Of a stretch of DNA of 32,000 bases, positions 2,019 through 18,623 are shown in pieces. The first letter of the stretch is position 1. Every line of letters starts with the position of its first letter. The translations under genes were made by a program, and so were the position numbers. Source of the DNA: Moraxella nasovis (lineage in GTDB: Bacteria; Pseudomonadota; Gammaproteobacteria; Pseudomonadales; Moraxellaceae); NCBI RefSeq assembly GCF_022701215.1, contig NZ_CP089976.1, forward strand, positions 1 to 32,000, read 5' to 3'. Below the pieces are notes generated by a model that did no database searches, was not told where the DNA came from, and was given only the letters and a program-made list of their open reading frames with translations.

Positions 2019-2501
2019 CCTAGGAATTTTGAAAGAAATATAAATGCCATTGAGAGAATGAAAGAATATTTTTTTGGATTTTTCAGGAATTGAAAACGCT
2101 AATAATAAAATACATATTGATGATTATGTAGATAAAAATATATTTGAACAATCCTTTTTATTCTTATATTTTTCAAAATATATTGGATAAATGAATTTCC
2201 TAGCACTCCTTGTGTTATTTGTATGAGCTTTCAAGAAGATGAAGTGGGTGCTTTTTCAACATTTTCCTTTCATAAATGTAGAGATAATGAGTATGTTGAT
2301 GACATAGATAACTTAGAAGATTATTCTCAGCCGATTTATTTAGAAATGATTAAGCCCAATTCAAGCAAAAGCAATCAAAAGCTTTTTAAGTAGAGCTAAA
2401 AAAAAATTGTTTGGCAAATAACATAAAAATACTGCACAAAGATGCAACAGAGAGGTATTAATCTTAAATTCCTAAATCAAAGAAAATTACCATAGGAGTC
2501 A

Positions 2502-2961
2502 TTGATGGAAAAATTATCAAAATTGAAAATAAATAAATCTTTAAATTTAAGTGCGATTAACTTTAATAGATTTAGTAGTAGCAAAGGTTGGATTGGCTAT
2601 TTTAAAGTCACTGACTTATCGGATGAAAATGCTATAAAAAATTCATCTAAAATAATGAGAGAATATTTTAATATTGATGATTTTTTTTATGATAAGTGCT
2701 TTATCTTATGAAAATTCTGCCGATATTTTGGAATTTGATAATTTTGAAATGTATGGAGATGTGTACAAAAAAGCAATTGAATACAGCTTTTTACAAAAAT
2801 ATGATGGGCTATTTATTGATTGCATAGAAAAGGAAATACCACTTCCATTAGAATTATTAAGACTTGATTTTGATAGCGATGTAATTTTGGATTTTTGTGA
2901 AGTTTTGATGAATTATTATTTTACCCCCTGTTATTGGTCAAGTGTGTTTTTTAATCAATAA
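2502..2961 (+). pseudogene. very AT-rich immunity-like ORF, frame broken at a T8 run
   Basis: ORFs 2502-2711 (frame 3) and 2674-2961 (frame 1) overlap at T8 (2681-2688). Removing one T joins ...NIDDFF to ISALSYENSADILEF. More frame-broken coding-like sequence follows to about 3110 (..LNIALYPHDDIGYGCISLDN). Confidence 0.3.
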
Positions 2962-3211
2962 AAAACTTAACATTGCTTTATATCCACATGATGATATTGG
3001 CTATGGCTGTATTTCATTGGATAATTAAACTCATAGCAAAGAAGTTTTATATGATTTTTTAAAATTTTGTGATAATAATGCGAATTTTAGATCTGTTTTT
3101 TGATGGGTGTAACATGGAGTAATGACATAGTCTAAATAAGCAAGCTACCTTAAAATACCCAAATAGCAATTTTGGTAAAATGTGGATGGCGCAAATTAAG
3201 GAATGTAACAA

Positions 3212-3406
3212 ATGTCATCTGTTATCATTAGTATATTGAAGCAAAATAGAATGATTGGATATCAAAAGGATAGACCAATATATCAAGCTATTGATAGTCA
3301 AGTTGGTTCAAAAACTGGGGCTGTCTTAGATGTTTTTGGTGCAAAAGAAGCTATAGACAATCAGATTTTAGACCAAATTAACAATGGTGCGCAAGTGATA
3401 GCATGA
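3212..3406 (+). CDS. small hypothetical ORF (possible remnant of a toxin tip)
   Basis: 64-aa ORF whose stop overlaps the next start (ATGA). No recognisable motif. Confidence 0.2.
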   Translation: MSSVIISILKQNRMIGYQKDRPIYQAIDSQVGSKTGAVLDVFGAKEAIDNQILDQINNGAQVIA

Positions 3407-3585
3407 ATAATTTAAAAAATGAAAAAATATTGACGCTGTCGATGATTGTTATTAATTTTATTTTATCAATAACCGCATCTATTGATATGAAAGAACCATA
3501 CTTTTTTAATTTCAAAAAAAATAATTATTTGTTTTATTGGTTTGGTTGTATTTTCATATCCTATAAAAGATTTTATTTTTGGTAA
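3403..3585 (+). CDS. small hydrophobic protein (immunity-like)
   Basis: Hydrophobic stretches ILTLSMIVINFILSITASI and YLFYWFGCIFISY. Further hydrophobic coding-like sequence lies out of frame up to about 3700. Confidence 0.25.
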   Translation: MNNLKNEKILTLSMIVINFILSITASIDMKEPYFFNFKKNNYLFYWFGCIFISYKRFYFW

Positions 3586-4050: not shown

Positions 4051-4407
4051 ATGAATATACTGACATTATATATCTCAAAAAATAATCAAGATTGCTTTGA
4101 GGAATTTTTAATGATTTTTTGTGAGAAAATAAATAATATTTTTTATTACAATGATTTTTATATCGATGTTAATGAATACATCTTGAATGAATTGGATTAT
4201 GATGAAATTATAAATATTAAAAACCATATTAATGATTTTATCGCTTATTCAATTGTTTGGAATAATCTACATTCACTATATGATTTATTAAAAAAAATAA
4301 ACTTAGATATAAGTTTTTTGATTGATAATGATAACGAAGGAGTCATTAAAAATGATGATTTTATTTCAATGAGTCTTGATGATTTTGCCAAATGGGTTAG
4401 ATTTTAG
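4051..4407 (+). CDS. orphan immunity-like protein (acidic, very AT-rich)
   Basis: 118-aa ORF rich in Asn/Ile/Asp that ends 20 bp before the start of a cdiA-CT fragment. Position and composition are typical of cdiI-type genes. No family motif recognised. Confidence 0.35.
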   Translation: MNILTLYISKNNQDCFEEFLMIFCEKINNIFYYNDFYIDVNEYILNELDYDEIINIKNHINDFIAYSIVWNNLHSLYDLLKKINLDISFLIDNDNEGVIKNDDFISMSLDDFAKWVRF

Positions 4408-4429
4408 AGATGATTTAGACGGCACTTGA

Positions 4430-5859
4430 ACAAAGAAAAGCCAAAAAATAGAAAACAACCTACGCCTATTTGATGGTATCACATCTGCCCTATATGCACC
4501 GAACGGCAATGGCATCACAGGCGACATCACAAGAGCATTAAACCCAGAACTTTCCTATCAAATCGGACAACACTTTAAACAAAATAACACCGAAGGTACT
4601 GCCCCACACATTTTATCCCATGCCCTACTAGGAGCTACCACAAGCTATGCGACAGGTAATAATGTAGCACTAGGAGCATTCAATGGAGCAACCAGTGAAA
4701 AAGTCGCCCCTGCCTTATCCAAAATCTTATATGACAAAAACCAACCTAGTAAGCTCACCCAAGAACAAAAAGACACCATCACAAGCATCATAAGACTAGG
4801 TACAGTTGCTACTGCTTACACCACCACAGGCGATGTGGCAGAAGCAGTAAATGCAAGTGAAGTGGGGAAAGTGAGATTGGGAAAGTGAGATTGGGAAAGT
4901 GAGATTGGGAAAGTGAGATTGGGAAAGTGAGATTGGGAAAGTGAGATTGGGAAAGTGGGGGTGGAGAATAATGGGGGTGCAAACCCTGTGCAAAAAGGTA
5001 GAGCCTTAAATGCTCGTGCGTGCAGGAATGGGGATGTTAATGCTTGCAAAGTAAGAACCCTTGGTGACATCATTAAGGAAAATAAAAAAATATATACTGA
5101 TTGGTACAAGCTTATTGCCAGTTATAGGAGACATACAGGGATTTGCCGAAGCTGAGACGGCTAGGGATTATATTTTTGCGACCATTGGAGTTATACCTGG
5201 GGCAGGAGATGTTGTACAAAAAGGTAGAGCTGCCAAGATAGCATACGATACAGCCAAAACTAGAAATGACGTAAATGGCATGAAAAAAGCCATGCAAGAG
5301 GGCGTTGATGCTTTACGAGAAGCTGATGCTCAAAAACTACCCAACACACCCACTGTTAGCCAGCCTATGACTGGTGGGCAAGCTCAAAGACAAGTGCAAA
5401 ATGGACAAGCAGTGCCTATTGGATATACTAGAGATAGACAAGGAAGACTACGTGATGGTCGAGGAAGATATGTTAGTGATATTAATAATCCAAGAGTAGG
5501 TACAAATCTTTCTCGTCCTGACTTAAGGGTTGGTTTAAAAAGTCAAGTGATGGCAAATTACGAAATACTGCCAAATGGGGCTTATCGTCATAGAGTCACT
5601 CGACAAATAGTTCAACCCCCCCCCCATTGATTACGGTCATGCCTATGGTCGTGAACATAGGCGTTTGGTTTTAGCAGCACAACAAACCAATCTAACTCAA
5701 GCCCAATTTAATGATTTTGTTAATTCTCGTCCTGATTATTTTAGGCTTGAGAACAGAGCAGACAATCAAAGTCATCGCTATGAAAAACCTGGGAATGGTG
5801 AGTTAGAAGAAATAATTAAACACATTAATGAATTTAAGCAACAAAGAGGTATTAAATAA
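4430..5859 (+). pseudogene. cdiA: orphan cdiA-CT fragment: pre-toxin region, VENN, PT-TG-like segment, GH-E family HNH/EndoVII nuclease tip; interrupted
   Basis: Frame 2 is open from 4430 with no start codon and reads ..NNLRLFDGITSALYAPNGNGITGD..HILSHALLGATTSYATGNN..TQEQKDTITSIIRLGTVATAYTTTGDVAEAVNASEVGK. VGVENN follows in the same frame (VENN 4961-4972). Next come LLPVIGDIQGF..GVIPGAGD (frame 3) and IDYGHAYGREH..NSRPDYFRLENRADNQSH (frame 1, GH-E signature). Breaks are a TGA at 4886-4888 inside the tandem repeat and +1 shifts at A7 (5084-5090) and C10 (5616-5625). Confidence 0.8.
4865..4957. repeat. 14-bp tandem repeat, 6 full units plus a 9-bp partial
   Basis: The unit gggaaagtgagatt repeats at 4865, 4879, 4893, 4907, 4921 and 4935. 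A partial gggaaagtg lies at 4949-4957, 3 bp upstream of the VENN codons. Confidence 0.95.
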
Positions 5860-6386
5860 TGGCTTATGATATGAGTGGTGTAGAGATTTTAGAGGCTTTA
5901 CATGAAGGTGATTTTAAAAAATTAGAGTATCTTTTAAAAAAATACCCCCATAGAACTTTATTAGACATATCTAAAGAAATGAAAAGGAATTGGCTCCACA
6001 AAGTCGCCGATTCAATGAATGCCAATGAACCACCACTTATTACAATTAATTATCTCATTGATTTAGGTATCGACATCAACGCCCAAGACATCTACGGTAT
6101 GACCCCCTTGCACTACGCCATGCGTAGTCGTAATGCCGAAGTTGCTATTACTCTACTTGAAGCAGGAGCAGACCCAAATATTCCTAATATTAACGATTTA
6201 AGACCTTTATCAATGGTTGGTTACACCAAGGATAGATTGGATGTTTTAGAGCTGATGTTAAAAAAGGGTGGTAATGTTTTTAATATCATAAATGGTAATG
6301 AAACAATTTTGGAGAGTTGGTTGCCCAGTGATTACGCCGAACAATGGGAAAAAGATATTTATGAAATAATGAAACAATACTCTTGA
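5859..6386 (+). CDS. ankyrin-repeat protein, likely immunity partner of the GH-E nuclease tip
   Basis: Ankyrin consensus DINAQDIYGMTPLHYAMRSRNAEVAITLLEAGADPNIPN plus a second repeat. Its start overlaps the toxin stop (TAATG). Confidence 0.7.
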   Translation: MAYDMSGVEILEALHEGDFKKLEYLLKKYPHRTLLDISKEMKRNWLHKVADSMNANEPPLITINYLIDLGIDINAQDIYGMTPLHYAMRSRNAEVAITLLEAGADPNIPNINDLRPLSMVGYTKDRLDVLELMLKKGGNVFNIINGNETILESWLPSDYAEQWEKDIYEIMKQYS

Positions 6387-6862
6387 TAAATAGTTCTGGA
6401 TATGGAGCGATTAAAACCATTGACGATAGAGCGAATTACTTTGGGGCGATGTACGGATATACAGGACAACCTTGGTTTAGAGAGGCTGAAAAAGTTTCAA
6501 GGAATGGTTTAAGTGGGTATAAGTATTCCTTTGGGAATGGGATATCAGATGCAGTGGGTCCACCATTAAATAAATGGAGAGATGAGGCAGGTGCGGTAAT
6601 TATGAAAAATGCAAAATCAGAGTTTCAATATATTTATCAAAATTACCGCAATGAAACCAATAGTTGGAGTTACAGAAGATTGGTTAAGGAGCAAAAAGAC
6701 CCGAAATTGCAGGCAGTGCATGAGAAATGGTATAAGCAATGGAATATAGTCGTTCAAAAAATTGCTGACAAAGAGGCAGGTGGAAAACTATTAAACCCCT
6801 ACCATAGAATTGATAAGGGGTGCAAAGGTATGCCTGAAGTGGCGGAGTGTAAAATAAAATGA
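6383..6862 (+). CDS. unassigned 159-aa protein, candidate orphan toxin tip
   Basis: The frame opens only at 6365, so there is no delivery domain or signal peptide. Trp/Tyr/Lys-rich. The stop overlaps the start of a membrane protein (ATGA at 6859). Confidence 0.35.
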   Translation: MINSSGYGAIKTIDDRANYFGAMYGYTGQPWFREAEKVSRNGLSGYKYSFGNGISDAVGPPLNKWRDEAGAVIMKNAKSEFQYIYQNYRNETNSWSYRRLVKEQKDPKLQAVHEKWYKQWNIVVQKIADKEAGGKLLNPYHRIDKGCKGMPEVAECKIK

Positions 6863-7272
6863 TTCCTTTTGGTTTTACTTGGACTTACATTATTTGGATG
6901 CTATGGATTTTTTTCGGACAAATTATTGTTTGTATTATTTATTTTATATTGTCTTTATATTTGATTTTTAGTAAAAAATTATTTTTAGTAAAAAACTTTA
7001 ATAAAATTATCTATTTTACTGGTCCTTGTTGTTTATTAATCCTAAGCTTACTGTGTATTAATCATTCTGACCTATTAATCTCAATCAGCAATACAGATCT
7101 AAAAGAGATATTATTTCAATTGGGAGTCTGGGGTTCAACTCTACCATTTGTTATTATTTGGATGTGCTACCAATATTATGGGAAAAAATCTCATAAACTT
7201 GAAATGTTTTTTTACATTATTAGCTGTATTTTTATTTTGTTGTCCAGCATTATATTTGTATCTTTGATCTGA
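6859..7272 (+). CDS. multi-pass membrane protein, candidate immunity protein
   Basis: Four hydrophobic segments (WTYIIWMLWIFFGQIIVCIIYFILSLYLIF, IIYFTGPCCLLILSLLCI, GVWGSTLPFVIIWMCY, FFYIISCIFILLSSIIFVSLI). Translationally coupled to 6383-6862. Confidence 0.5.
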   Translation: MIPFGFTWTYIIWMLWIFFGQIIVCIIYFILSLYLIFSKKLFLVKNFNKIIYFTGPCCLLILSLLCINHSDLLISISNTDLKEILFQLGVWGSTLPFVIIWMCYQYYGKKSHKLEMFFYIISCIFILLSSIIFVSLI

Positions 7273-7281
7273 TAAGGTCAA

Positions 7282-7620
7282 TTGTCCATCCAAACAATGC
7301 CTAGAAATACAGGTCAACAAAGCAGTGTTGGAAAGTCTGTTAATGCCGCAGGTGATGAGGGTGGGCATCTAATTGCTAGCGCACTCGGCGGTTCAGGTGA
7401 TAGAATCAACCTAGTACCCCAAGCACAAACACTTAATAGAAGCGACTGGAAGAAGATGGAAAATGAACTCGTAAGAGAGCTAAAAGCAGGTAAAAAAGTG
7501 ACTATCAAGATAGATGTGAGCTATCCAGCGACATCTACAAGACCAAATAGGTTTTACGTTACCGCAACCATCAGTCATAATGGAGAAACAGAAGTGAGAA
7601 GATTCCCTTTTTCACAATAA
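7282..7620 (+). CDS. orphan nuclease toxin tip, Endonuclease_NS_2 (YeeF/EssD-like) type
   Basis: DEGGHLIASALGGSGDRINLVPQAQTLNRSDWKKMENEL matches the GHLIA..GG...NLVPQ...N...W..ME signature as recalled. There is no ATG (TTG only) and no upstream delivery region. Confidence 0.6.
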   Translation: MSIQTMPRNTGQQSSVGKSVNAAGDEGGHLIASALGGSGDRINLVPQAQTLNRSDWKKMENELVRELKAGKKVTIKIDVSYPATSTRPNRFYVTATISHNGETEVRRFPFSQ

Positions 7621-7639
7621 ACTTTTGGAGGAGTTATCT

Positions 7640-8032
7640 ATGGAAAGTACACTAGGTGCAATTTATCAAAAAATAGCTAGTGATTTATTGAATTGCAATG
7701 TTAATCAAAAGTGGGACAAGTTGGTTTTAACATCAGATATTTTAAAACATAATGCCAGCTCTATCACATTTTGCGAATACCACAAAAATATAGCAAGCGA
7801 TGTGGATATTGAATTTGATACAATTTTTTCTATTAATGATTCGCTTGTTGAGTTAAGAGATGTTTTGCTAGATGGACTCGGTCATCGCATATGGGGGCTT
7901 GTTTTTACTCTATATCCCGATGGAAAATTTGAAATAGAATACGATTACAATAAGCCTGAAGATTATGAAGAAACAGATGGCATTATCACGGCTGAAGAAA
8001 TAAGTGACAGTCTGCAAAATCTATTTAAATAG
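7640..8032 (+). CDS. YezG/EssI-like (DUF600-type) immunity protein
   Basis: RBS ggaggag at 7627-7633 and ATG at 7640. Pattern AIYQKIASDL..KWDKLVL..(acidic)..IWGLVFTLYPDGKFEIEYDY resembles DUF600 immunity proteins. It lies directly after the nuclease tip. Confidence 0.55.
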   Translation: MESTLGAIYQKIASDLLNCNVNQKWDKLVLTSDILKHNASSITFCEYHKNIASDVDIEFDTIFSINDSLVELRDVLLDGLGHRIWGLVFTLYPDGKFEIEYDYNKPEDYEETDGIITAEEISDSLQNLFK

Positions 8033-8109
8033 CTATAAAATCAACCAAGTCTAAAGGTAAAATTTATTTTTAAAATACAATTGTATGGGCTTGGTTAACG
8101 ATAGGATAA

Positions 8110-10503
8110 CCACCATGCCCCACCCAAACCCCCCTTACCACAGCACTCACTACAGCTTTACTGTTAAGCTGCGGTGCTGCATGGGCGAATGGGTCTTTGA
8201 TTGTTGGTGGCACCACTCCAAACGCCAACCACCTGCAAGTCACCCATCAATCAGGCATCCAAGCCAATACATCAACACTCACCGTAGACGGCAAAGGTAT
8301 CTTTACAGGTGGTTATCTGCTTACCACAGATGAACAAGGCAACCAAACTAACTTTAAAGGTGGCATTATCACCCAAGATATGCAAAACCACCTTACCTAT
8401 GACGGCAGTGCAAATAGCATCGGCATCGCAGTCAGTGGCAAAGGCATCTCACCAACAAGCCTAGGCTATGGTATAATAGACCCCACTCATCAAACCAGCA
8501 CTACCTACTCTGCTGTAACAGGACAAGCAGGGCAGGCTCATGCCACCATCAAAGACAAAGACAGTCTTAATCAAACGCTACAAAACAGCTTTGATGAACA
8601 AGCATTTAATAGGGAGCTTGGGCTACAAACTCAAATCAGTACAGAGTTTGGTAGGCAAGCTCCGAGGGTGGTGGCACAGTTTAGTCAAAACCAAATCAAT
8701 AATATCCTAGAGCAACTTAATGACCCTAATTTAAGTCAAGATCAAGCAGAACAAATTCTTGATGAAGCCAAAAAATGGGATGAGGGTGGGATTTATAGTG
8801 TGGCACTGCATACTGCTATGGGTGCATTGGGTACAGGCTCTACTGAGGGAGCATTAGCAACAGGAACTGTAGCAACAATCGCTCCTAACATCCAAAAATT
8901 AGAAGATTATTTAACAAAACAACTGACCAAAGACAGCTCAAAAGAACAAGCAGACAAAGCCAGACAAACCGCCAAAGGCTTAATTTCTTTTGTCATGCTT
9001 GCCACAGGTCAAACAGCAGGACTTGACCCATCTAGTACCATGATGGCAACGAATGTGGAGATGAATAATCGGCAGTTGCATGGGCAAGAAAAGCAACTCG
9101 CCAGAGTTTTAGTTCAAAAAGCCAAACAAAAAGGGTTAAAAAGATCTGATGGTCAGTCTTATACACTTCAAGACATTGAAGATGCCTTACGCTGGGCAAA
9201 TAGCGGTAAGTATAAAGAGCGTTATGACAGTAATTCAAATGTAGCTATAAACAAATACAATGTGGCAAATGCCAACAAATTACTTTATGACAATGCCATA
9301 GGTGATGATTATAAAAAAGATGGGAAAAGATTGTGGAAAAGTTACTCTCAAGATGGTGTAACTGTCATGCGTCAGAACTTTAATAATATTAAAAAACCTG
9401 ACACAGAACTTATCAACCTTATCCAAAAACAAACCCCAAGTTATCAGTACACTTGGAACAAAGAACACATCAAAGGTTATCAAGCACCACCGAAAATCAC
9501 AACGCCCAGAAAAGTAGTTAAGGCACCAATTTATCCGCAGAGTGCTATGGATAGAAAAAATGCGACTATTAAGAGAAGTGGGGTTGATTTAAGTAGTTCT
9601 GCTAACATACAGGCAAAGTCTGATAAGATAATGAATGAAAAAGTCATGCCTGTTGTGCAAGTTGGAATTGGTGCTACCGAAGTGGTTGCAGGTAGTGCAA
9701 TGTGTACTACTGCATTAGGCTGTACAGCTGGCGTTGCCTTAATTACTAATGGTGTAGACAACGTAGCAACAGGTGGTTATAATTATGGCAAATCATTTAG
9801 CCAACAAACAAACTCAGTAGCACTTACCAAAGGGGTAGGGCTGTCTGAAAATACTGCTGCTAATGTTAAATTAGGGGTGGATTTGGCTTCGGGAGTTGGA
9901 GCGGGTAAAGCTGTTACTAAGACAGTTGGCAAAAGTACAGTAAGCAAAGTAGATGTTTCTAATAACCAAAGATTGCCTGATGTGTATGGTGATGGGGATT
10001 TGGGTAGTGTATTGGATGTGCCACCATATACTATAAGACAAGATAATAATTTTTATTCTGAAATTAATGAAAGAGGAAATCCTAAAGCTTATCTTGACAA
10101 AAATGGAAATCTCGTTCCAGCAAATGTAAATGGTAGGGGAACTATACAAACACATATTAGAGGTAGTAACCCTAGTGAAACACCTTATATATCTACAATT
10201 GATCCAAGCATTGTAGTTTCACCTAAAAAATATGCTAAACAACAAATTATAATTGATACTCAAAATTTACAAAAGGATATAGATAATGGTGTTGTTAAAG
10301 ATATTGAAATTGTTACCCCAAAGCAAATTATTTCTGAGTTGCAAGATAAAATAAATAAGGCACAAAATAGATATGATAAGAACCCATCTAATAAGAATCG
10401 CAATAGCCTAGATAGGGCAAAATCTGATTTAAAAAATGCGATGAGAGATGGAGAGTGTCTAATTAAAGGTATCGTCCCTTGTAATTATATTAAAAAAAAG
10501 TAA
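8110..10503 (+). CDS. cdiA: orphan CdiA C-terminal fragment (FHA-repeat end, pre-toxin region, VEMNN, about 477-aa C-terminal region with unassigned toxin domain)
   Basis: Frame 1 is open from 8110, with the first start-like codon a TTG at 8197. Reads FGRQAPRVVAQF and GIYSVALHTAMGALGTGSTEGALATG. The VENN variant NVEMNN is at 9052-9069. A Gly/Ala-rich hydrophobic segment follows (VVQVGIGATEVVAGSAMCTTALGCTAGVALITNG). The terminal domain reads ..GTIQTHIRGSNPSETPYISTIDPS..ECLIKGIVP. Confidence 0.75.
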   Translation, partial: PPCPTQTPLTTALTTALLLSCGAAWANGSLIVGGTTPNANHLQVTHQSGIQANTSTLTVDGKGIFTGGYLLTTDEQGNQTNFKGGIITQDMQNHLTYDGSANSIGIAVSGKGISPTSLGYGIIDPTHQTSTTYSAVTGQAGQAHATIKDKDSLNQTLQNSFDEQAFNRELGLQTQISTEFGRQAPRVVAQFSQNQINNILEQLNDPNLSQDQAEQILDEAKKWDEGGIYSVALHTAMGALGTGSTEGALATGTVATIAPNIQKLEDYLTKQLTKDSSKEQADKARQTAKGLISFVMLATGQTAGLDPSSTMMATNVEMNNRQLHGQEKQLARVLVQKAKQKGLKRSDGQSYTLQDIEDALRWANSGKYKERYDSNSNVAINKYNVANANKLLYDNAIGDDYKKDGKRLWKSYSQDGVTVMRQNFNNIKKPDTELINLIQKQTPSYQYTWNKEHIKGYQAPPKITTPRKVVKAPIYPQSAMDRKNATIKRSGVDLSSSANIQAKSDKIMNEKVMPVVQVGIGATEVVAGSAMCTTALGCTAGVALITNGVDNVATGGYNYGKSFSQQTNSVALTKGVGLSENTAANVKLGVDLASGVGAGKAVTKTVGKSTVSKVDVSNNQRLPDVYGDGDLGSVLDVPPYTIRQDNNFYSEINERGNPKAYLDKNGNLVPANVNGRGTIQTHIRGSNPSETPYISTIDPSIVVSPKKYAKQQIIIDTQNLQKDIDNGVVKDIEIVTPKQIISELQDKINKAQNRYDKNPSNKNRNSLDRAKSDLKNAMRDGECLIKGIVPCNYIKKK

Positions 10504-10513
10504 GGTTTTTTTT

Positions 10514-11143
10514 ATGAGCTCAAAAGAAATTGATGATTTATTATATGGCATACCAACCACAGTGGACTACACTGATCTGCCAGAGGAGTTAGATGAAGAG
10601 GACATTCCATCAGAAAGAATCGATGGTTTATTAAATATAATAAATAAAGAGATGGATATTTATTTATTATTCAGAGCATCTTTCCTTTTAAACTCTTGGG
10701 GTATTGATGAGGGTTTTAATAAAATGACGGAGCTTTTATTTAGTGATAAAATTTCTTATTTGATAATAAATAATTTAAAATCATTAGATGATACATATAA
10801 GCATGCTTTATCGTCTTATATTAGTTATTGGGCAGTAAATTCCGATCATGGAAATGGTGAAAAAGCGAGAAAAAAAATATATCAACCAATAAAGATTATT
10901 ATTGACAAGGCTAACATTCAGCCATTTCAAATAAATTCTTTATTTTGGGTGATTAAGAAAGAAGGATTTTATGAATATATTCCTTTATTAAAGCAACATT
11001 TAACAAAATTGTTAAGATACCACATGAATATGTATTGGGAAATACATGACTTATCAAAATTTTTATTGGATTTAGGATTTTCTGAATTTATTAATAAAAT
11101 TTTTTACCAAAATAATAAGGGGCTATCTGATTATGGTTTATAA
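10514..11143 (+). CDS. immunity-like protein for the preceding CdiA-CT (unassigned family)
   Basis: 209-aa very AT-rich ORF that starts 10 bp after the toxin stop. Acidic N-terminus. No recognised motif. Confidence 0.45.
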   Translation: MSSKEIDDLLYGIPTTVDYTDLPEELDEEDIPSERIDGLLNIINKEMDIYLLFRASFLLNSWGIDEGFNKMTELLFSDKISYLIINNLKSLDDTYKHALSSYISYWAVNSDHGNGEKARKKIYQPIKIIIDKANIQPFQINSLFWVIKKEGFYEYIPLLKQHLTKLLRYHMNMYWEIHDLSKFLLDLGFSEFINKIFYQNNKGLSDYGL

Positions 11144-11497
11144 GTATATTTAAAACAAGGCAAAGTAAATAAATATGGTGGCACTAGTAGTTATTCATTT
11201 TTTAGAACTCTTTGATGTATCCACAGATAGTAGGGCTTTATCTCCATAAACCAGTTTGAGTATCAAAGATAAATATACTTTACATTATTAATATCCTACA
11301 CCGCCTTTTCCAACATAAATCAAGGCAAAAAAAACAAGACGGTAATTTATTAAAATGTATCAAAAAAAAAAATTGGAGATAGTAATGACCAAATATGTAC
11401 ACATTAAGAGATTTTCTTCCTGATTTGGTACAGTGCAAGAAGATGATTTACTCTACTTCTTATCAGAAGAAGATTATGACACCTATTATAATTGTGA

Positions 11498-11962
11498 TTT
11501 AAAAACCACCACCAAACAAAATCAGGCTTCATCAAAGGCAGTGGGGTAAGTATTACCATCGGTTCTCAAACAACCGACAACCAAAACAGCACCATTGGCA
11601 CCAATGATGGCAATGTGGTTTTGAGTGCAGGGGGTGATTATCGGCAAATAGGCAGTCATGTCAGTGCTTATATGGGGTCTGATACAGGCAAAGGGATAAA
11701 AGATAAAAAGCGTGGCAATGTCATCATTGATGCCAAAAATATTGATGTCATCAACAATATAACGACAAAAGACACCACCGAAAGCACTTACTTTAAACAA
11801 AAAGGGCTTACTGTCAGTGCTTCTAATAGCTTGGTAGATGGTGCCAAAGGCGTACAAAACATGGTAGAAGCTGGCAAGGAGGTGCAATCAGACAGGGCTC
11901 GTGCCATGGCCGCTCTAAGTGCTGTCAGCAAAGTCCTTTGCTTTTTTAAATTGTTTGCGTGA
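11498..11962 (+). pseudogene. cdiA: internal cdiA/fhaB-type fragment, truncated at both ends
   Basis: GFIKGSGVSITIGSQTTDNQNSTIGTNDGNVVLSAGGDYRQIGSHVSAY..GNVIIDAKNIDVINN..KQKGLTVSASNSLVDGAKG is typical FHA-2 repeat sequence. No start codon. Similarity is lost near 11935-11945, where - strand island sequence begins. Confidence 0.7.
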
Positions 11963-12121
11963 TTTAGCATGAGTTTTATTGATGGCTTGAATGGTTTGAG
12001 AATGTAAACCAAGTAATTCACCACTGCCTTTGGTGTAAATAGCTACTAACATCAACTAAGCTTACAGGCAGTAAACTGAAGCTCTCTGTGATGCTGGGTG
12101 GTGTGTTAGGCTTACACATTG

Positions 12122-12166
12122 CACTAAAAATTAAGAACCGCTAAATTTTTGATAATTTAGTGGCTC
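12122..12166 (-). terminator. terminator-like hairpin downstream of the GNAT pseudogene
   Basis: Stem gaaccgctaaat / atttagtggctc (9 of 11 paired) with an 8-nt loop. A T-rich tract follows on the - strand. Confidence 0.4.
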
Positions 12167-12194
12167 TTTGGGATTTGATAACAGGTTTATTAAA

Positions 12195-12711
12195 TCAAGT
12201 GCTTGGGATGTCTTTAATGGCGTAACACAAGCGCTTGGGGTAGTTTGATAGCTCTGTGAAGCCGTATTTTTCATAAAAGCGTTGAGCGTTTTCATCTTTT
12301 GCGCCTCATCATTTCTGATAGTCGTTTGGCGGTTTGCATAGCATGTAAAAGTAAATCAGCACCCAATCCTTGCCCTTTGCATGCTTTATCAACTGCAAGC
12401 CTTCCAAGTAGTACGCACAGAATAGGGCTGTGGGGGCTTTGACGTTTCAATCTCTCACTATCATCGCGTTGTATGATATGGCACGCTGATAAGGTGTAAA
12501 AACCTGTCAGGCGGTTATTGTCTATTGCGCCATAAATAACCGTTTCATGACGTTTTAAAAGTTGGCTCGCCTGCTGTTTGATAAAACGATTTAATGGTAG
12601 GACACCGCAATCAAAAGTTGTCTTATCGTGGTTTCGGGTGAGCTTAGTTATCAACACGCACAAAACCCCTAATTGTGTACAATTATAAGAAATACGACAA
12701 ACAAAGTCCAA
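12195..12711 (-). pseudogene. TacT-like GNAT acetyltransferase toxin, degraded
   Basis: HDKTTFDCGVLPLNRFIKQQASQ..GFYTLSACHI..LGRLAVDKACKGQGLGADLL, then the frame is lost. The expected C-terminus GAKDENAQRFYEKYGFTELSNY lies in another frame and several residues appear deleted. Only a garbled DUF1778-like remnant is visible upstream (12720-12880). Confidence 0.6.
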
Positions 12712-12886
12712 TGATTGTTTAAAAGTAAAACTGCTTGTAATAGTAAATTGACGAAGGATTCAACAAAAAAAATCTAGCATAAGAAAGTGTCGTTGGACTA
12801 ATCGGTTTGATGTTTTTTGTCTTGCGCCTTCTTGGCGAACTATTCGGAAATTCCGAGTAGTTAAGCTCATTTATTATCAACAATTT

Positions 12887-13255
12887 TCAACATACCATTG
12901 CTCGCATAGCTCTTCGGCTTGATCCACCAACTCCTGTAGAATGCCATTAGCATCGAGTCCCGCTTCATCCAAAAACCCCCAGGCTTTACCACTTTGTTCT
13001 TCTGCACCAAAGCGACTGGCAAAAGTCATATCAAAACCATTGTATGCTTATGTTATTTTCGCGGTCATCATTTTGCAGTTCAATATAGAATTGCTTGGTT
13101 TTGCTACCATCATTGATTGCGACATCAAAATAGACACAAAAGCCGTCCACTCCTATCTTTGTGGGATAGTTACAGCCTTGGCCATAGATTTCTACGACTT
13201 CTGCTAAGGTGTCTACGATATTGGTAGAAAGTATTTTAAGGGGTTTGTGTGCCAT
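12887..13255 (-). pseudogene. small acidic hypothetical protein, frame broken near 13030-13045
   Basis: MAHKPLKILSTNIVDTLAEVVEIYGQG.. continues in another frame as AYNGFDMTFASRFGAEEQSGKAWGFLDEAGLDANGILQELVDQAEELCEQWY. No family recognised. Confidence 0.35.
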
Positions 13256-13311
13256 TCTTGGTCTCTGATGTTTTTACATGCTATTAAGTATAGGGGTTGT
13301 TGTTTGAGTCT

Positions 13312-14266
13312 TTAAATCTCAAAACATTCGCTAATTTGCGATAGTTTTGAGACAAAAAGGTCATCTAGATGGTCAGATAATGCTTGATGGAATTCATCTA
13401 AATTAAACCAATCTTCAAGTTTTGATATATTGGGCAATACGTCCCAATTAGGGCGGTATTCTGCTATTATGTGTGAGCGATGTTCATCTAATAGCTCTCT
13501 GACATTATCGCCTGGTTTTAAATCATTGACAAACTGCACCGCTGCTATGGCAATCAAGTCATAAATTTGCTGGGAATTATCAAGTACATATTTTGCAACA
13601 CGTTGCTTGGTGTTGAGCTCATATGTATCAACAAAATGCTTGATTTTTTTCAGCATTGTCATGAACAATATTGCAAAAATCATCATCAAGCCATACGCAG
13701 TTCTGCCAATTTAGGTCTTTAATAAGAACTGCAATGTCAAAATCATCACTTTGTAATTCCAAAGTATCCACAATCAACTGTTTTAGTAGGGGGTGTGACT
13801 CTTTTGCCGCATCTACTGCCATTTCAACAAAACCCAATTCATTTAAATTTTTGGCGGTGTAAGGTAATTCTGCATTTATGTATAGTTCAAAGAAAGGCTC
13901 TTGTTTTTTGTAACCAAGTTTAACCGTCTGTCTAACAAGAAATTGCAAGCCTGGCTCATAGTCATGATAAGCAAGTTCCATGTCCCAATCATATTTTTTA
14001 AGCTCATCGGTAAACTCATCATCAAGACCACCAGTAAGAAAGTCTCGTAATGTGGCACTCATACACCACCGACCAAAGCCGACAAAAGGATAGCTTATTC
14101 CGTCTTGGAGACCGTCTTTGAACTGTGATTTTTCAACCCAAAAACCATAAATGAAAGAATGTTGGTTTTCATCTAACCAAGTAAAAACTTTGGTTAGAGT
14201 TTCAAGAATTTGGGGGTTTTGTGTGGTTATGATTAAAGAACCATAAGCGTCGCTGATATTAGCCAT
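13312..14266 (-). CDS. acidic hypothetical protein (about 318 aa if the T7-run frameshift at 13644-13650 is corrected)
   Basis: ORFs 13628-14266 and 13312-13689 overlap at a homopolymer. One base change joins ..NIVHDNAEK to IKHFVDTYELN. RBS aggag precedes the ATG at 14266. The conserved leader lies upstream. Confidence 0.5.
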
Positions 14267-14370
14267 TTGTTATCTCCTGTTTAACGTTGATTAGATATAT
14301 ATAGAATAAAACAAGAGAAGAATAAACAAAAAGCAATAATATCTAACATAACCTAACAGCCGTTAGGCTA
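14267..14370 (-). promoter_or_regulatory. conserved leader, copy 1 (GCCTAACGG, pyrimidine-rich tract, TATATATCTAAT, RBS)
   Basis: The - strand reads TTAGCCTAACGGCTG..TTGCTTTTTGTTTATTCTTCTCTTGTTTTATTCTATATATATCTAATCAACG..AGGAG..ATG. The same architecture occurs at 19146-19251 and 20706-20838. Confidence 0.55.
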
Positions 14371-14406
14371 AGTAAATTATCATTCACGCCCGCATTCAGC
14401 TTTGTT

Positions 14407-14434
14407 AAAATCATCGTTACTTAGTAACGATTTT
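14407..14434 (-). terminator. hairpin with flanking A/T runs (bidirectional terminator-like)
   Basis: atcgttac tta gtaacgat (8-bp stem) flanked by aaaa and tttt, downstream of vapC. Confidence 0.4.
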
Positions 14435-14469
14435 AATATCTGTGCTGCCAAGCCTTCGCTGACAGTCTA

Positions 14470-14526
14470 GGCGGTGGGTGTGGCTTGCTTCTTATCTAAT
14501 CAACCGCCCAAGCCACAAGGAGTAAT
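14470..14526. repeat. 55-60-bp hairpin element, copy 1
   Basis: ggcggtgggtgtggcttgcttcTTATCTAATCAACCGCCCAAGCCACAAGGagtaatc, with stem gtggcttg/caagccac. It abuts the vapC stop. Confidence 0.8.
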
Positions 14527-14930
14527 CAGTTTTCTGTTCCAGATACCCAGTTCTCCACAGCCAAATCAAAACCTTCAAAATCTCGTTCGTTATTAGTAAC
14601 CAGCGTAAGATTTTGGCTGATAGCATGGCTGGCAATGAGCGTATCAAAACTAGCCTTGTGTTTTTTGCTTTGCATTATTTTACCAAAAATAACCGCCGCC
14701 TTGTCATCAAAGGGCAAAATAGTTATCATGCTTTGTAAGCGGTCAAAGATGGATTGTGATTGATGGATATTTAGTCCACGTTGCAACTCTGCCCATGTGA
14801 TTGCACTTATGGCGACTTCACCAACAAAACAACGGCTAAAATGCTCAACCACTGATGGCGGGGTATGTTTCATTAAATAAATGCATATGTTGGTGTCAAG
14901 CAAATACTTAGGTTGTATTACCATTGGCAC
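14526..14930 (-). CDS. vapC: PIN-domain toxin VapC
   Basis: KYLLDTNICIYLMK.. N-terminal PIN motif, later ..TLVTNNERDF. Overlaps the vapB stop. Confidence 0.85.
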   Translation of the reverse strand: MPMVIQPKYLLDTNICIYLMKHTPPSVVEHFSRCFVGEVAISAITWAELQRGLNIHQSQSIFDRLQSMITILPFDDKAAVIFGKIMQSKKHKASFDTLIASHAISQNLTLVTNNERDFEGFDLAVENWVSGTEN

Positions 14931-15136
14931 TCATTCTCCACAAGTTCGGCACGCTCAATATCTGCACCGATTTGACGGAGTAAGTGGGGCACTTCGCCCA
15001 AAGTTTTAACCGGTTCAATGATGACACAGCCATTCTCTTTGCGTAGAGAGACAGGGGTGTTTGCTCCAAAAGCCAGTGCTTTTGGTAAACGTACCGCTTG
15101 GCTGTTGCCAGAGACAAAAGGGATGGTAACAATCAT
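14918..15136 (-). CDS. vapB: AbrB/SpoVT-type antitoxin VapB
   Basis: FVSGNSQAVRLPKALAF is a typical SpoVT-AbrB antitoxin N-terminus. 72 aa, directly upstream of vapC. Confidence 0.8.
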   Translation of the reverse strand: MIVTIPFVSGNSQAVRLPKALAFGANTPVSLRKENGCVIIEPVKTLGEVPHLLRQIGADIERAELVENECQW

Positions 15137-15164
15137 TGTTAAGCTCCAAACTATGTATATCTTT

Positions 15165-15193
15165 AAGTATATACATAAAGATATACAAAGTCA
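15165..15193 (-). promoter_or_regulatory. vapBC-1 sigma70-like promoter overlapping a palindromic operator
   Basis: The - strand reads TTGACT-N17-TATACT. The inverted repeat gtatatcttta..taaagatatac spans the spacer and the -10 element, about 25 nt upstream of the vapB ATG. Confidence 0.6.
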
Positions 15194-15497
15194 ATGATTT
15201 TGCAATTTCACCACAAAAACCAGACTAGCTTTGTGAAGAACGGTAATTATTCATGGCGGAGGTAAATGCACTCTCAATCTCAGAAAAAAGCCATGTAGTC
15301 AAATGCACAACCGCAGATGGCTTCAATTGCAATGACCGTTAGGCTTACCACTATACAAATAATCAGCTTGCATTTCTAATCTATGTTATATTTTTTAATA
15401 ACTTTTGATTATTGTTTTTCGTTGTTTACTAATAGTTGAGTTATCAAACTTTTACTTGATAACTCAAAAAACCACTACATAAGCCATTAAAACTTAT

Positions 15498-15552
15498 GTG
15501 GTGGGGTGTGGCTTGGGTTTTTTATCTAATCAACCACCCAAGCCACGAGGGG
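15498..15552. repeat. 55-60-bp hairpin element, copy 2
   Basis: gtggtggggtgtggcttgggtttTTTATCTAATCAACCACCCAAGCCACGAGGgg, near-identical in core to copies 1 and 3. Confidence 0.8.
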
Positions 15553-15691
15553 TAGGCGTTTTGGTTTTAGGGTCTGTTGGAGTTTGTGTGCCATTGCCGA
15601 CACCATAATCATTAACCAATTCCGCAAAAATAGCAAAAGCAACATCGCTCATCATACGTTGTTCATAATCAAAACCATTTGGCACAGTGTT

Positions 15692-16153
15692 TCATGAAAT
15701 GGATTTATTGATGCCTATTACGAGACGATAAGGTTCATCGGTTGGCACAAAACCAAAGGTTTGATAATATTTCCAGGCTTTCATTTTTCGCATCGATTAC
15801 TACAAATGCCATACCGCTAAACAGAGAAAATTTTTTGATGCCTTTTAGGGCATCTGACAAGGCTTGTTTACTTAATCCTTTACCTTGATGATGAATATCT
15901 ACGCCAATACGACCAATTAAGATTGCTGGAATTTGCTTGGGATAGCCTTTAACTTTTCCAAATTCATTAAAAATGGTTATATTTGATAAAGTATAAAAGG
16001 CCAAATTTTATGATTGTCATCGACTAAAACATGAGTTCTAGCAATGCCTTTTTTGGCGTGTTGGCTTGCCATTGTGTGCAAATAGCGGTTAATGACTTCA
16101 TTGCCACAATCAAAATCCGCCTTGTCATGGTGCTTGCCCAATAGCTCAAACAT
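15692..16153 (-). pseudogene. TacT-like GNAT acetyltransferase toxin with two frame breaks
   Basis: MFELLGKHHDKADFDCGNEVINRYLHTMASQHAKKGIARTHVLVDD.. / ..AFYTLSNITI..IGRIGVDIHHQGKGLSKQAL.. / ..KAWKYYQTFGFVPTDEPYRL. The breaks lie near 16003-16009 and 15776-15790, both at short A/T runs. Confidence 0.7.
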
Positions 16154-16434
16154 TGATTTTCTCCCCTTTCATCATGCGTTCGCCTAATTCCAATAACTCA
16201 CGCATAAGGGGGGGTTGGAGATGGTGGGTTTTCTAGTAGCTCAATGATTTGTAAGGCTTGTTTTTCGGTCAATACTAAATTTGCACCGTCTGAATTTAAA
16301 CCGTGCTTATCCAGTTCTAGCCAAATATCATCGCTATTGGCCACACTTTGCAACAATTCATCGGTGGTAATGCCTTGTGCTTTGGCGGTCTCAATAATCG
16401 CTATGGCGGTTGCAGGTGGTAAATCTAAAATCAT
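16146..16434 (-). CDS. DUF1778 (TacA)-like antitoxin, frame broken at G7 run 16208-16214
   Basis: ILDLPPATAIAIIETAKAQGITTDELLQSV...LVLTEKQALQIIELLENPPSPTP. With one base change at the run the frame continues ..LMRELLELGERMMKGEKINV and ends in an ATGTTTGA overlap with the GNAT start. Confidence 0.6.
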
Positions 16435-16675
16435 CTATTTAATCTCCATTAATAATCAATCTTTAAAAGTTGTCATATTTTAAATGTTTGTTTTTCGCTA
16501 TAAGCCTTGCCATGTCTAGGGTGTGTCGGTTTTTTGTGATTTTGGTTTTGGGTTGGTTCTGTAAAGTTTTTTGGGTGTCGGATTTTTAAATCTTAGGGTA
16601 ATACCAGGGTGTTTACGCCTATGAAACAGACACATAAAAGCACCACAAGGGGGAATAACGGGCGTAAATGGGCAT

Positions 16676-16972
16676 TTATGCAATCAAAATTTGCTTATCA
16701 TTGATGGTAGAGGTAACGGTCAATTTACCGCCTAACGCTTCAACGTATTTGGCAAGCGTGGATAAATGCACATCAACACCATTTTCAATTTTGCTGATAT
16801 TAGCTTGTGATACGCCCATTTTGTCCGCCAGCTCCTTTTGTGATAAATGGGCGGTTTGTCTAAGCTGTGATAATTCATAGCTTTGTTTTAGGGTGCGGGC
16901 TTTGGTGTGTATTTTGGCTTGCTCATCTTTGGGTAGGCTTGCCAAAAAGGTTTGATGATTGGTAAAGCTCAT
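16676..16972 (-). CDS. XRE-family helix-turn-helix protein (antitoxin-like)
   Basis: LRQTAHLSQKELADKMGVSQANISKIENG is a canonical XRE HTH. Confidence 0.75.
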   Translation of the reverse strand: MSFTNHQTFLASLPKDEQAKIHTKARTLKQSYELSQLRQTAHLSQKELADKMGVSQANISKIENGVDVHLSTLAKYVEALGGKLTVTSTINDKQILIA

Positions 16973-17019
16973 TTTGTCAGCCCTTATTATCTTATGCCAT
17001 GACTTAACGCTCTGCGATT

Positions 17020-17283
17020 TTAGGCAAACGCCAAGCCCACTTCTTCCCCTAAATTAGCGTTAATATTTACTAATGCGTCAAGGCTAAATTTGCTAATCTT
17101 GCCCTGTAATAGGTCATTTAGGCGTGGTTGTGTGATACCGCATTCTTTTGCGATTTGGGCTTGTGTGCCGTCCATTTCGCTAATTAGCTTTTGAATATGG
17201 CTCATCAGCTGGGCCCTTAACTTTAAATTTGCACTTTGGCCGGGTGTGTCGCTTAGTGCGTCAAATACGCTGTTAAATTTCAT
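17020..17283 (-). CDS. XRE-family HTH antitoxin (HigA-like partner of the upstream Gp49-type toxin)
   Basis: GTQAQIAKECGITQPRLNDLLQGKISKFSLDALV. It starts 6 bp after the toxin stop. Confidence 0.7.
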   Translation of the reverse strand: MKFNSVFDALSDTPGQSANLKLRAQLMSHIQKLISEMDGTQAQIAKECGITQPRLNDLLQGKISKFSLDALVNINANLGEEVGLAFA

Positions 17284-17288
17284 CTTGA

Positions 17289-17606
17289 TTATCCTTGTAT
17301 TAGTTTTAGGCGGTCTTTGGCAAGCTCTATATCAGCTTTTGGGGTCTTTTGGGTTTTCTTGGTAAAGGCGTGTAATACATACACAGTATCAGCAAATTTG
17401 GCGGTATAAATTACCCTATAAATGCCTTATGCGTCTTTTAATCGTATTTCTACCACGCCAACACCAATACTAGGCATATATTTAAAATCACTTGGCATTT
17501 CGCCATTTTGCACCAAATGCAATTGATAGCCCGTATCTTGCTTTATGTCATTTGGAAAAGCTCTAATATCATCTAAGGACGTTCCCAAAAATTCAATATC
17601 TTTCAT
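17289..17606 (-). pseudogene. Gp49/HigB-like RelE-superfamily toxin with in-frame TAA
   Basis: MKDIEFLGTSLDDIRAFPNDIKQDTGYQLHLVQNGEMPSDFKYMPSIGVGVVEIRLKDA*GIYRVIYTAKFADTVYVLHAFTKKTQKTPKADIELAKDRL. The stop is at 17427-17429 and is not at a homopolymer. Confidence 0.7.
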
Positions 17607-17795
17607 TGTTATTTTAATTTGCCTTGTTTTCTTAAATTATATCAGTTTTAATATAATAACACAAGGGTTTTTCTTATGTCGCAATTTATAAACATGATAA
17701 CTGCCTTATGCTCAAACAACCTTAAATCTTAATTCCGCATTTGAAATGTAAAAATAGCAGGTGTGAACGCCAAAACACCGCTTTTTTATCATCTT

Positions 17796-17830
17796 AAAAA
17801 GCCTTTACCCCCTATAAATAAAGGCTTTTA
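17796..17830 (-). terminator. rho-independent terminator after vapBC-2
   Basis: Perfect 10-bp stem aaagccttta / taaaggcttt with an 11-nt loop. On the - strand the stem runs into a T tract. Confidence 0.5.
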
Positions 17831-17852
17831 CTACTTTATTTGTGCAAGATTT

Positions 17853-17910
17853 GGTGGTGTGGGCGGCTTAGGTTTTATCTAATCAACCGCCCAAGCCACA
17901 AGGAGTAATC
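17853..17910. repeat. 55-60-bp hairpin element, copy 3
   Basis: ggtggtgtgggcggcttaggtTTTATCTAATCAACCGCCCAAGCCACAAGGagtaatc. The 3' 38 bp are identical to copy 1. It lies 28 bp beyond the vapC-2 stop. Confidence 0.8.
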
Positions 17911-17938
17911 GCTTGCCATTATTAGTAGTGATTGTTAA

Positions 17939-18331
17939 TTATTCTAACCAGTTTTGCCATTTTAAGCCGTCAACTCGGCTAAACTCTTTGACATTATGCG
18001 TAATCAAGGTTAGATTTTTAGATAACGCTTGTCCTGCTATTAGCATGTCATACGCCCCGATCACTTGCCCCTGTCTTTGTAGGTCTGCTCGCACCTTGCC
18101 AGCACATAGAGCATCTTTATCATCAAAAGGCAATCTTACAAAGGGTAATTTGTCAATTTTTGCCAAATTTTCACGCTGTTTTTGACTATGATATGCCCCA
18201 TAATACAGCTCGAACAGCACAATATCCGACAACGCAAAATCGCTCACTTTACGTTGTTTTAGTCGTGCGATAAGCACAGGATTTTGCTTTTGTAGGGCAA
18301 TGATGATGTTGGTGTCAAGCAGGTATTTCAT
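17939..18331 (-). CDS. vapC: PIN-domain toxin VapC (second copy)
   Basis: MKYLLDTNIIIALQK.., ..LTLITHNVKEFSRV. 4-bp overlap with vapB. Confidence 0.85.
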   Translation of the reverse strand: MKYLLDTNIIIALQKQNPVLIARLKQRKVSDFALSDIVLFELYYGAYHSQKQRENLAKIDKLPFVRLPFDDKDALCAGKVRADLQRQGQVIGAYDMLIAGQALSKNLTLITHNVKEFSRVDGLKWQNWLE

Positions 18332-18573: not shown

Positions 18574-18594
18574 TGATGTATATATGATTGGTAT

Positions 18595-18623
18595 ATATTA
18601 TTAAACTTTATGTCATTTGTCAA
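18595..18623 (-). promoter_or_regulatory. vapBC-2 sigma70-like promoter
   Basis: The - strand reads TTGACA-N17-TAATAT. AT-rich inverted repeats lie between the -10 element and the start codon. Confidence 0.55.

Follow-up and report, generated by a model that had tools for sequence, protein, structure and literature searches.

A detached, apparently decaying array of cdiA-CT/cdiI orphan modules on the chromosome of Moraxella nasovis, probably now mainly an immunity repertoire

Orphan modules made of a C-terminal CdiA toxin region and an immunity gene (cdiA-CT/cdiI) were described downstream of the contact-dependent growth inhibition (CDI) locus cdiBAI in Escherichia coli EC93 and EC869, Yersinia and Dickeya (Poole et al. 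2011; PMC3150448). Orphan regions have also been reported at the 3' end of intact type-II cdi operons of Acinetobacter (De Gregorio et al. 2019; PMC6336857), and both studies offer the alternative that displaced remnants persist chiefly because of their immunity genes. The latter paper cites the orphan immunity arrays of the Vibrio cholerae type VI secretion system (T6SS), in which, as far as they are summarised there, displaced effectors decay and immunity genes are kept for protection; on the same summary, those arrays differ from the locus described here in secretion system and in cassette boundary. Here we analyse the first 32,000 nucleotides of contig NZ_CP089976.1 of Moraxella nasovis and describe an array of cdiA-CT/cdiI orphan modules within it. 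This stretch of chromosome is referred to as the window; all statements about the window concern these 32 kb. The literature found on M. nasovis consisted of taxonomy papers only, and no account of its CDI content was found.

The array extends over roughly 10 kb of the M. nasovis chromosome, with all modules on the + strand, and we consider it probable that the locus is a detached, decaying orphan cdiA-CT/cdiI array of the Moraxellaceae CdiA family that now constitutes mainly an immunity repertoire. A preliminary description, made from the sequence by eye and open reading frame (ORF) list, had placed modules at 4430-6386, 6383-7272, 7282-8032 and 8110-11143 and a stub at 11498-11962; all five are present, with small corrections to their coordinates. 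Numbered M1 to M4 and followed by the stub, they comprise the following features.

4433-6386, + strand: module M1 as a whole, with a PT-VENN pre-toxin, a GH-E nuclease tip and an ankyrin immunity gene
4433-4864, + strand: M1 pre-toxin, a CdiA fragment of PT-VENN type without a start codon (PF04829 and CdiA homology)
4865-4957, + strand: perfect tandem repeat of M1, 14 bp x 6.6, unit GGGAAAGTGAGATT (Tandem Repeats Finder score 186, 100% matches)
4958-5859, + strand: M1 CdiA-CT, with VENN at 4961-4972, a linker and a GH-E HNH nuclease tip (PF14410)
5859-6386, + strand: M1 immunity gene, intact, with ankyrin repeats (Ank_2, 2.3e-19), a Shine-Dalgarno (SD) sequence AGAGG and ATG
6383-6862, + strand: M2 bare toxin tip, 159 aa, all-alpha, with homologues at CdiA-type C-termini and a TTG start without SD
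6859-7272, + strand: M2 immunity gene for a 137-aa polytopic membrane protein with 4-5 hydrophobic segments; GGAG and ATG; 25% GC
7282-7620, + strand: M3 bare tip, an Endonuclea_NS_2 nuclease (PF13930, 1.5e-24, profile positions 32-130 of 132)
7625-8032, + strand: M3 immunity gene, YezG-like (PF04634, 1.4e-5)
8173-11143, + strand: module M4 as a whole, with a CdiA stalk, VEMNN, a mosaic CT, an un-named tip and an immunity gene
8173-10503, + strand: M4 toxin-side fragment, with stalk at 8173-9054, VEMNN at 9055-9069, an N-terminal CT domain to ~10010 and the tip at ~10012-10503
10514-11143, + strand: M4 immunity gene, 209 aa, intact, recognised by adjacency to a tip homologue in other genera
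11507-11950, + strand: stub (LU293_00085), the 5' part of a further orphan from the CdiA FHA-2 region, with its 3' end cut, recognised by CdiA homology

Homology to FhaB/CdiA in the M1, M4 and stub regions had been set beforehand as the test of the array's identity, and it was found in all three. In M1 and M4, pre-toxin or stalk sequence is joined to a VENN-type boundary, as had been reported for two modules (VENN at 4961-4972 and VEMNN at 9055-9069), and the stub belongs to the CdiA FHA-2 region. M2 and M3 have neither VENN nor CdiA homology on their 5' side and are the two bare tips said to begin right after the previous immunity gene, M2 on the very stop codon of the M1 immunity gene and M3 at 7282. 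The tips of M2, M3 and M4 occur at the C-termini of full-length CdiA proteins, and the M1 GH-E domain occurs in the orphan array of the Moraxella bovis plasmid pMBO-1. The alternation of toxin-type sequence with AT-rich short ORFs that first drew attention to the locus is real: GC content is 0.38-0.45 in the toxin segments, apart from the M4 tip (0.31), against 0.21-0.35 in the immunity genes.

Start signals follow the same division. TTG is the first codon of the toxin ORFs, and their SD is weak or missing, whereas the immunity genes of M1-M4 are intact and each has an SD and ATG, in M3 on condition that translation starts at ATG 7640 and not at TTG 7625; ATG 7640, which follows GGAGGAG, is probably the true start. 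The M4 ORF (8197-10503; LU293_00075) has its annotated TTG start at 8197, 5' of which CdiA homology already begins, at 8173; the M4 fragment lacks a native start. The modules combine toxin pieces without initiation signals and immunity genes with them, in agreement with the orphans of Poole et al. (2011; PMC3150448).

Further likenesses to those orphans are the start-less cdiA fragments with VENN and some upstream homology (M1 and M4), the expressible small immunity gene after each, the tandem layout on one strand and tips that are common to other toxin systems. In contrast to them, no cdiBAI lies upstream here, two modules have no VENN, one is broken by a VENN-proximal tandem repeat and the M4 boundary motif reads NVEMNNRQLH; its VEMNN (9055-9069) aligns to NVDANNRQLH in hemagglutinin-repeat proteins of Psychrobacter and Moraxella. 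The orphan regions of Acinetobacter type-II operons (PMC6336857) belong to the same family and share with this locus a stepwise 5'-3' build-up of remnants, an excess of immunity genes over toxin pieces and a multi-domain, mosaic CT, as in M4, but they lie 3' of intact cdi operons, and the present array has no adjacent one.

No cdiB, two-partner secretion (TPS) domain or FHA-1 remnant was found in the 32 kb by tblastn with all ORFs of at least 150 aa from 18 related cdiA loci, and the window was matched solely at parts of the array listed here. In a comparison of its six-frame ORFs with pMBO-1, a plasmid with cdiB and a pair of cdiA genes, matches were confined to M1, M4 and a recombinase, with no cdiB or TPS domain. 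The earlier remark that no cdiB or intact cdiA is in view therefore holds for the 32 kb. No fragment, nor the window as a whole, has the TPS domain, FHA-1 repeats and partner CdiB of a functional CdiA/TpsA, and the downstream-of-cdiBAI position of orphan arrays is not found within the window. Directly upstream of the array stand an outer membrane protein (OMP) beta-barrel gene and a C39 FapD/FilB-like peptidase gene; from these neighbours and the two comparisons we conclude that cdiBA is not adjacent. The OMP gene, whose 5' end is apparently cut by the window start, and the C39 gene (1-1532) are co-oriented with the array and are the tail of a fimbrial or amyloid-type operon unrelated to it. 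LXG, RHS or MafB domains gave no Pfam match in the array, which shows none of the defining features of LXG toxins of the type VII secretion system (T7SS) or of Rhs toxins; LXG proteins share tips only. A promoter and terminator scan showed no enrichment over shuffled sequence, and no tRNA genes or Rfam families were found.

In M1, CdiA homology starts at 4433, PT-VENN (PF04829) is matched at E = 1.7e-4, which passes the Pfam curated cut-off, and the pre-VENN region has 51-61% aa identity to the main CdiA of Moraxella cuniculi and to four M. cuniculi orphans, and 64% to one orphan on pMBO-1. The module is not one ORF, and carries three lesions, namely the repeat and two frameshifts. The repeat forms an 84-bp insertion two codons 5' of VENN, puts a TGA into every frame and appears as a clean 28-codon gap in alignment with a M. 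cuniculi orphan. The repeated unit corresponds to the native conserved E-I-G-K-V block GAGATTGGGAAAGT, present just once in every M. cuniculi copy, and no dimer of the 14-bp repeat was found in metagenome contigs or in the loci of relatives. We take the repeat to be a scar of slippage or recombination, left in the very sequence where CT exchange takes place. The two frame changes in the CT are both +1: one apparently lies at or near A7 (5083-5089), which sits within the overlap window of that change, and the other lies at C10 (5616-5625), the sole run of eight or more C or G in the window. They are either contingency-type slippage or assembly errors, and the first could alternatively mark a recombination junction, since 4972-5004 and 5198-5230 are 76% alike. 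On the frame-repaired reading the GH-E domain (PF14410) is matched at 3.2e-13, and the intact ankyrin protein that follows is 39% identical to the product of the gene after the GH-E nuclease on pMBO-1.

Profile searches, which the preliminary description had proposed for every tip, gave a family for the tips of M1 (GH-E) and M3 (Endonuclea_NS_2); those of M2 and M4 had no Pfam or NCBIfam family even at relaxed thresholds, and a profile search of PDB sequences found no match. For the M2 tip, a full HMMER scan of 1.84 billion representatives returned 43 relatives, and in the long ones the domain lies at the extreme C-terminus (e.g. residues 2468-2627 of 2632) of TPS / Fil_haemagg_2 / PT-VENN / DUF637 proteins, which argues that the M2 tip is a real CdiA-CT toxin domain. 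Its AlphaFold2 (AF2) model has a predicted local distance difference test (pLDDT) score of 88, and Foldseek gave no significant match to it in the PDB (best E = 1.3). In an Acinetobacter metagenome-assembled genome, a CdiA ORF of 1443 aa matches the M3 tip over its last ~115 residues; a M. cuniculi orphan tip is a further match.

M4 has an uninterrupted ORF of 768 aa, ~880 bp of stalk homology and 36-50% identity to hemagglutinin-repeat proteins of Psychrobacter and Moraxella. Similarity to these relatives drops at aa ~295-314, ~375, ~460-497 and ~566-584, and the tip runs from ~606; because similarity is lost at several points, the CT is best described as a mosaic in which a conserved N-terminal domain is joined to a variable tip. 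Hemagglutinin-repeat proteins encoded on Acinetobacter towneri plasmids have tips with 52.5% identity to that of M4; in Bacillus and Streptococcus suis, LXG/T7SS toxins match it at 32-52% identity. The AF2 model of the M4 tip is confident, with no significant Foldseek match in the PDB (best E = 0.18). The tip carries conserved H-x-R-G, Y-I-S-T-T-D and R-D-G-E motifs, from which one might speculate that it is an ADP-ribosyltransferase. In S. suis (JBSBAA010000003.1, 4255-7080) the M4 tip/immunity pair stands in an LXG/T7SS toxin array and adjoins an NADAR-domain gene and ADP-ribosyl-toxin genes, neighbours that may point to a chemistry of the M4 tip related to NAD or ADP-ribose. Homologues of the tip and of the 209-aa immunity gene stand side by side in two other species, with 55% and 47% identity in Psychrobacter celer and 52% and 34% in S. 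suis, and this kept adjacency gives good indirect support to their being a cognate toxin/immunity pair.

More generally, each tip of M1-M4 may be neutralised by the gene that follows it. This putative pairing draws indirect support from the recurrence of the GH-E/ankyrin and Endonuclea_NS_2/YezG-like pairs in the arrays of relatives and from the co-conservation of the M4 pair across three genera.

The array reaches further left than 4051, with degraded immunity genes at 2053-2393 and 2502-3091, and at its right end the stub is broken off beside a transposase fragment. The features at these two ends are as follows.

2053-2393, + strand: degraded immunity-type gene in two frames, of which only the C-terminal ~100 residues are left (Psychrobacter homologue)
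2502-3091, + strand: immunity-type pseudogene, full length, in three frames (M. cuniculi homologue)
3212-3585, + strand: possible toxin tail (3212-3406) and small ORF with one transmembrane segment (3403-3585), module-like in their ATGA overlap and AT-richness
4051-4407, + strand: intact 118-aa ORF of 20.7% GC, a putative orphan immunity gene by its composition, SD-like GGTGA with ATG and position directly 5' of M1
11936-12037, - strand: tnpB fragment of the IS200/IS605 family at the break point of the stub (M. bovis plasmid match)

The product of 2053-2393 has its match in Psychrobacter sp. T6-5, in the ORF right after a CdiA-CT (locus L009, 11560-12045), with 44-56% identity over residues 70-169 of that ORF. 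The pseudogene at 2502-3091 corresponds to a gene of the M. cuniculi orphan array (locus L023, 15501-16130), whose residues 1-205 of 210 it matches with 43-67% aa identity; at the nucleotide level the two are 67.7% identical over 573 bp. No Pfam match and no homologue were found for 3212-3585; neither the 4051-4407 ORF nor the small ORFs at 2223-3585 matched Pfam or NCBIfam at relaxed thresholds, and 4051-4407 is without homologue support.

The stub is 37-43% identical to CdiA of Psychrobacter and Faucicola, aligning with residues 2086-2256 of a 3185-aa ORF, and in full-length relatives this region lies ~380 residues N-terminal of an M4-type start. Used as a query against 5.8 billion sequences, it matched only itself, in a search whose word filter misses relatives at 35-40% identity and whose protein set is without pseudogenes; M4 matched no other M. 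nasovis protein under the same two limits. The lone self-match of the stub would weakly disfavour a closely matching resident cdiA. The transposase of M. bovis plasmid NZ_CP087786.1 shares 94% aa identity (over 34 aa) and 87.5% nucleotide identity (over 96 bp) with the tnpB fragment that cuts the stub. Another 9 kb past the stub, at 20978-21017, lie 40 nt that match sequence immediately 3' of tnpA on that plasmid, possibly an insertion sequence (IS) end.

The closest relatives in sequence are on the M. cuniculi chromosome (LR134343.1), where a 2572-aa CdiA with a TPS domain is followed by at least six orphan modules. M1-type pre-VENN sequence there is 51-61% identical and an M4-type module 44-47% identical; an Endonuclea_NS_2/YezG-like module is common to both loci, and M. 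cuniculi has an intact homologue of the 2502-3091 pseudogene. M. cuniculi differs in having kept a TPS-domain CdiA directly upstream and in its single-copy E-I-G-K-V/VENN block. In M. bovis, M4-like hemagglutinin-repeat genes are carried by 25 plasmids of 30-46 kb, mostly typed mobilizable. pMBO-1 and related M. bovis CDI plasmids resemble the window in an orphan array with a GH-E/ankyrin pair and PT-VENN orphans; unlike it, the pMBO-1 type lies on plasmids and is complete, having both cdiB and two full cdiA, and aa identity to the window is only 32-64%. P. celer (loci L019-L021) has, as here, a bare M4-type tip with its immunity gene, small ORFs and a stalk stub cut by a transposase. Its array has no cdiA or cdiB within 10 kb upstream and lies beside a phage-type integrase and the IS256-family transposase that cuts the stub; it is shorter than the M. 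nasovis array and has another genomic context.

We suggest that each module is the remnant left when a new toxin/immunity cassette replaced the 3' end of cdiA and pushed the older one downstream, so that the array would record serial displacement by a cdiBA that has since been lost from beside it (compare PMC3150448, PMC6336857). The left end abuts the FapD/FilB-like operon, and the right end is cut by IS debris, beyond which come a toxin-antitoxin island and what looks like an integrated plasmid remnant. Without a TPS domain, a native start and more than at most a weak ribosome-binding site, the toxin pieces are not secretable as they stand. The immunity genes of M1-M4 are intact with SD and ATG, and their most likely present role is therefore protection against matching toxins from other strains, which they probably still provide. 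Several points weigh against this interpretation. The two left-end immunity genes are pseudogenes, so that selection for immunity has not been uniform; an intact cdiBA may exist elsewhere in the genome or on a plasmid, in which case the array might still be in use; the M1 frameshifts, in or near homopolymers, could be assembly errors; and the role as an immunity repertoire, expression included, is judged from sequence.

The preliminary description had taken the locus for a silent reservoir of toxins that can be swapped into an expressed cdiA. That idea could hold for M4, with its intact ORF and stalk, but is unlikely for M1 with its stops and frameshifts, M2 and M3 with no homology arm, or a stub cut by IS debris; M4 alone would be a realistic source of toxin for reuse, provided that a cdiA with a matching stalk is present in the genome. 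A live reservoir would have an expressed cdiBA elsewhere and would load M4 by recombination in the pre-VENN or stalk sequence, or M1 if its repeat contracts and its homopolymers slip back. The mechanism has a precedent in Yersinia pestis Microtus, in which an orphan and cdiA were joined by a deletion (Poole et al. 2011; PMC3150448). A live reservoir would also accord with the uninterrupted 768 codons of M4 and their ~880 bp of stalk homology, with the reversible, slippage-type nature of all M1 defects and with a 14-bp unit that is exactly the conserved VENN-proximal block where exchanges occur. We nevertheless judge it rather unlikely, given the lack of an adjacent cdiBA in 32 kb, the missing 5' arm of M2 and M3, the three independent lesions of M1 and, weakly, the database searches in which the stub matched only itself and M4 no other M. 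nasovis protein. The apparent decay of M1 has also to be weighed as an assembly artefact, whereby homopolymer miscalls and a collapsed or expanded repeat would conceal an intact orphan. Although one frame change falls exactly in C10, the other appears to fall at A7 and each is +1, a perfect 84-bp repeat is improbable as a sequencing error and introduces stops on its own, and the other pseudogenes of the region (2053-3091) show real decay, which makes this explanation unlikely.

An origin on a Moraxella CDI plasmid or mobile element, which integrated and then lost cdiBA and its backbone, is compatible with the detached, decaying array that we prefer, and we regard it as possible, if doubtful. 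M4-like genes occur on the 25 M. bovis plasmids; pMBO-1 holds cdiB, two cdiA and a GH-E/ankyrin orphan array, one orphan of which has 64% identity to the M1 pre-VENN; there are IS fragments at 11936-12037 and 20978-21017; and the window itself has a block at 22399-24625 that is 57-67% identical to Moraxella plasmid backbones. That block, however, resembles a VirB-type conjugative plasmid without CDI genes and not pMBO-1, against which only its recombinase matches, at 37%; ~10 kb of toxin-antitoxin genes lie between it and the array, neither att sites nor flanking repeats were found, the tandem duplications at 1705 and 31795 being not convincingly related, and the equivalent array of M. cuniculi is chromosomal. 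A different polymorphic-toxin system altogether (T7SS LXG, Rhs/T6SS or MafB) is scarcely credible. The M3 pair and the M4 tip/immunity pair do occur in Gram-positive LXG toxin loci, but every N-terminal fragment that is kept (M1, M4 and the stub) is CdiA/FhaB, the boundaries are of VENN type, no LXG, RHS or MafB domain of Pfam is present, and the tips of M2, M3 and M4 sit on full-length TPS or hemagglutinin-repeat proteins; the stalk homologies effectively refute a non-CDI identity. It is very improbable, finally, that cdiBA-free orphan arrays beside mobile genes, as in the window and in P. celer, are a recurrent selected state in Moraxellaceae, a transferable library of immunity genes and tips without its own secretion, in which the M1 repeat, C10 and A7 would be reversible contingency locks and not decay.

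Read as a detached and decaying array, the locus is of a well-known kind and leaves the current picture of CDI evolution unchanged. It puts on record toxin/immunity cassettes of CDI origin in a sheep respiratory species whose description is recent, and its small curiosities are the VENN-proximal repeat, the two un-named tip families and the detachment from cdiBA. M2 and M4 add two CdiA-CT tip families with confident AF2 models and no Pfam model or PDB fold match, and the M4 tip family travels with its immunity gene between Gram-negative CdiA and Gram-positive LXG/T7SS toxins. As an end state, in which secretion genes are gone, toxins are decaying and immunity genes are kept, such an array bears on the question, raised in PMC3150448, of whether orphans are reserve weapons or shields.

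Elsewhere in the window, a toxin-antitoxin island lies 3' of the array on the - strand (12100-18600). It contains GNAT toxin genes, one truncated (12292-12711) and one frameshifted (15735-16153), the small upstream ORF at 16198-16434 being a putative antitoxin by position; a pair of PIN-domain (VapC-like) genes, both with a small ORF in front (14526-15136 and 17939-18573); and two small ORFs at 16676-17283, the first of which encodes a Pfam HTH_3 protein. A 58-nt hairpin-forming repeat occurs just 3' of genes at 14470, 15500 and 17853. The block at 22399-24625 comprises a serine recombinase, a Fic protein and a truncated relaxase of 162 aa; it is 57-67% aa identical to the same gene block on plasmids of M. 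bovis, M. lincolnii and M. nonliquefaciens, and looks like an integrated plasmid remnant. Short tandem duplications were seen at 1705-1765 (two copies of 29 bp, directly following the C39 gene) and at 31795-31849 (27 bp x 2, near the window end); they were considered as direct repeats bounding an island and rejected, as their mutual alignment is unconvincing, and they are probably unrelated. The - strand at 25000-31650 is occupied by a run of large ORFs of 184, 457, 501, 181, 228 and 566 aa. A Pfam scan gave no match for those of 184, 457, 501 and 228 aa and a sub-threshold match only for that of 566 aa; in its C-terminal half, the 457-aa ORF shows 38% identity to a gene on Moraxella osloensis plasmids annotated as peptidoglycan DD-metalloendopeptidase.

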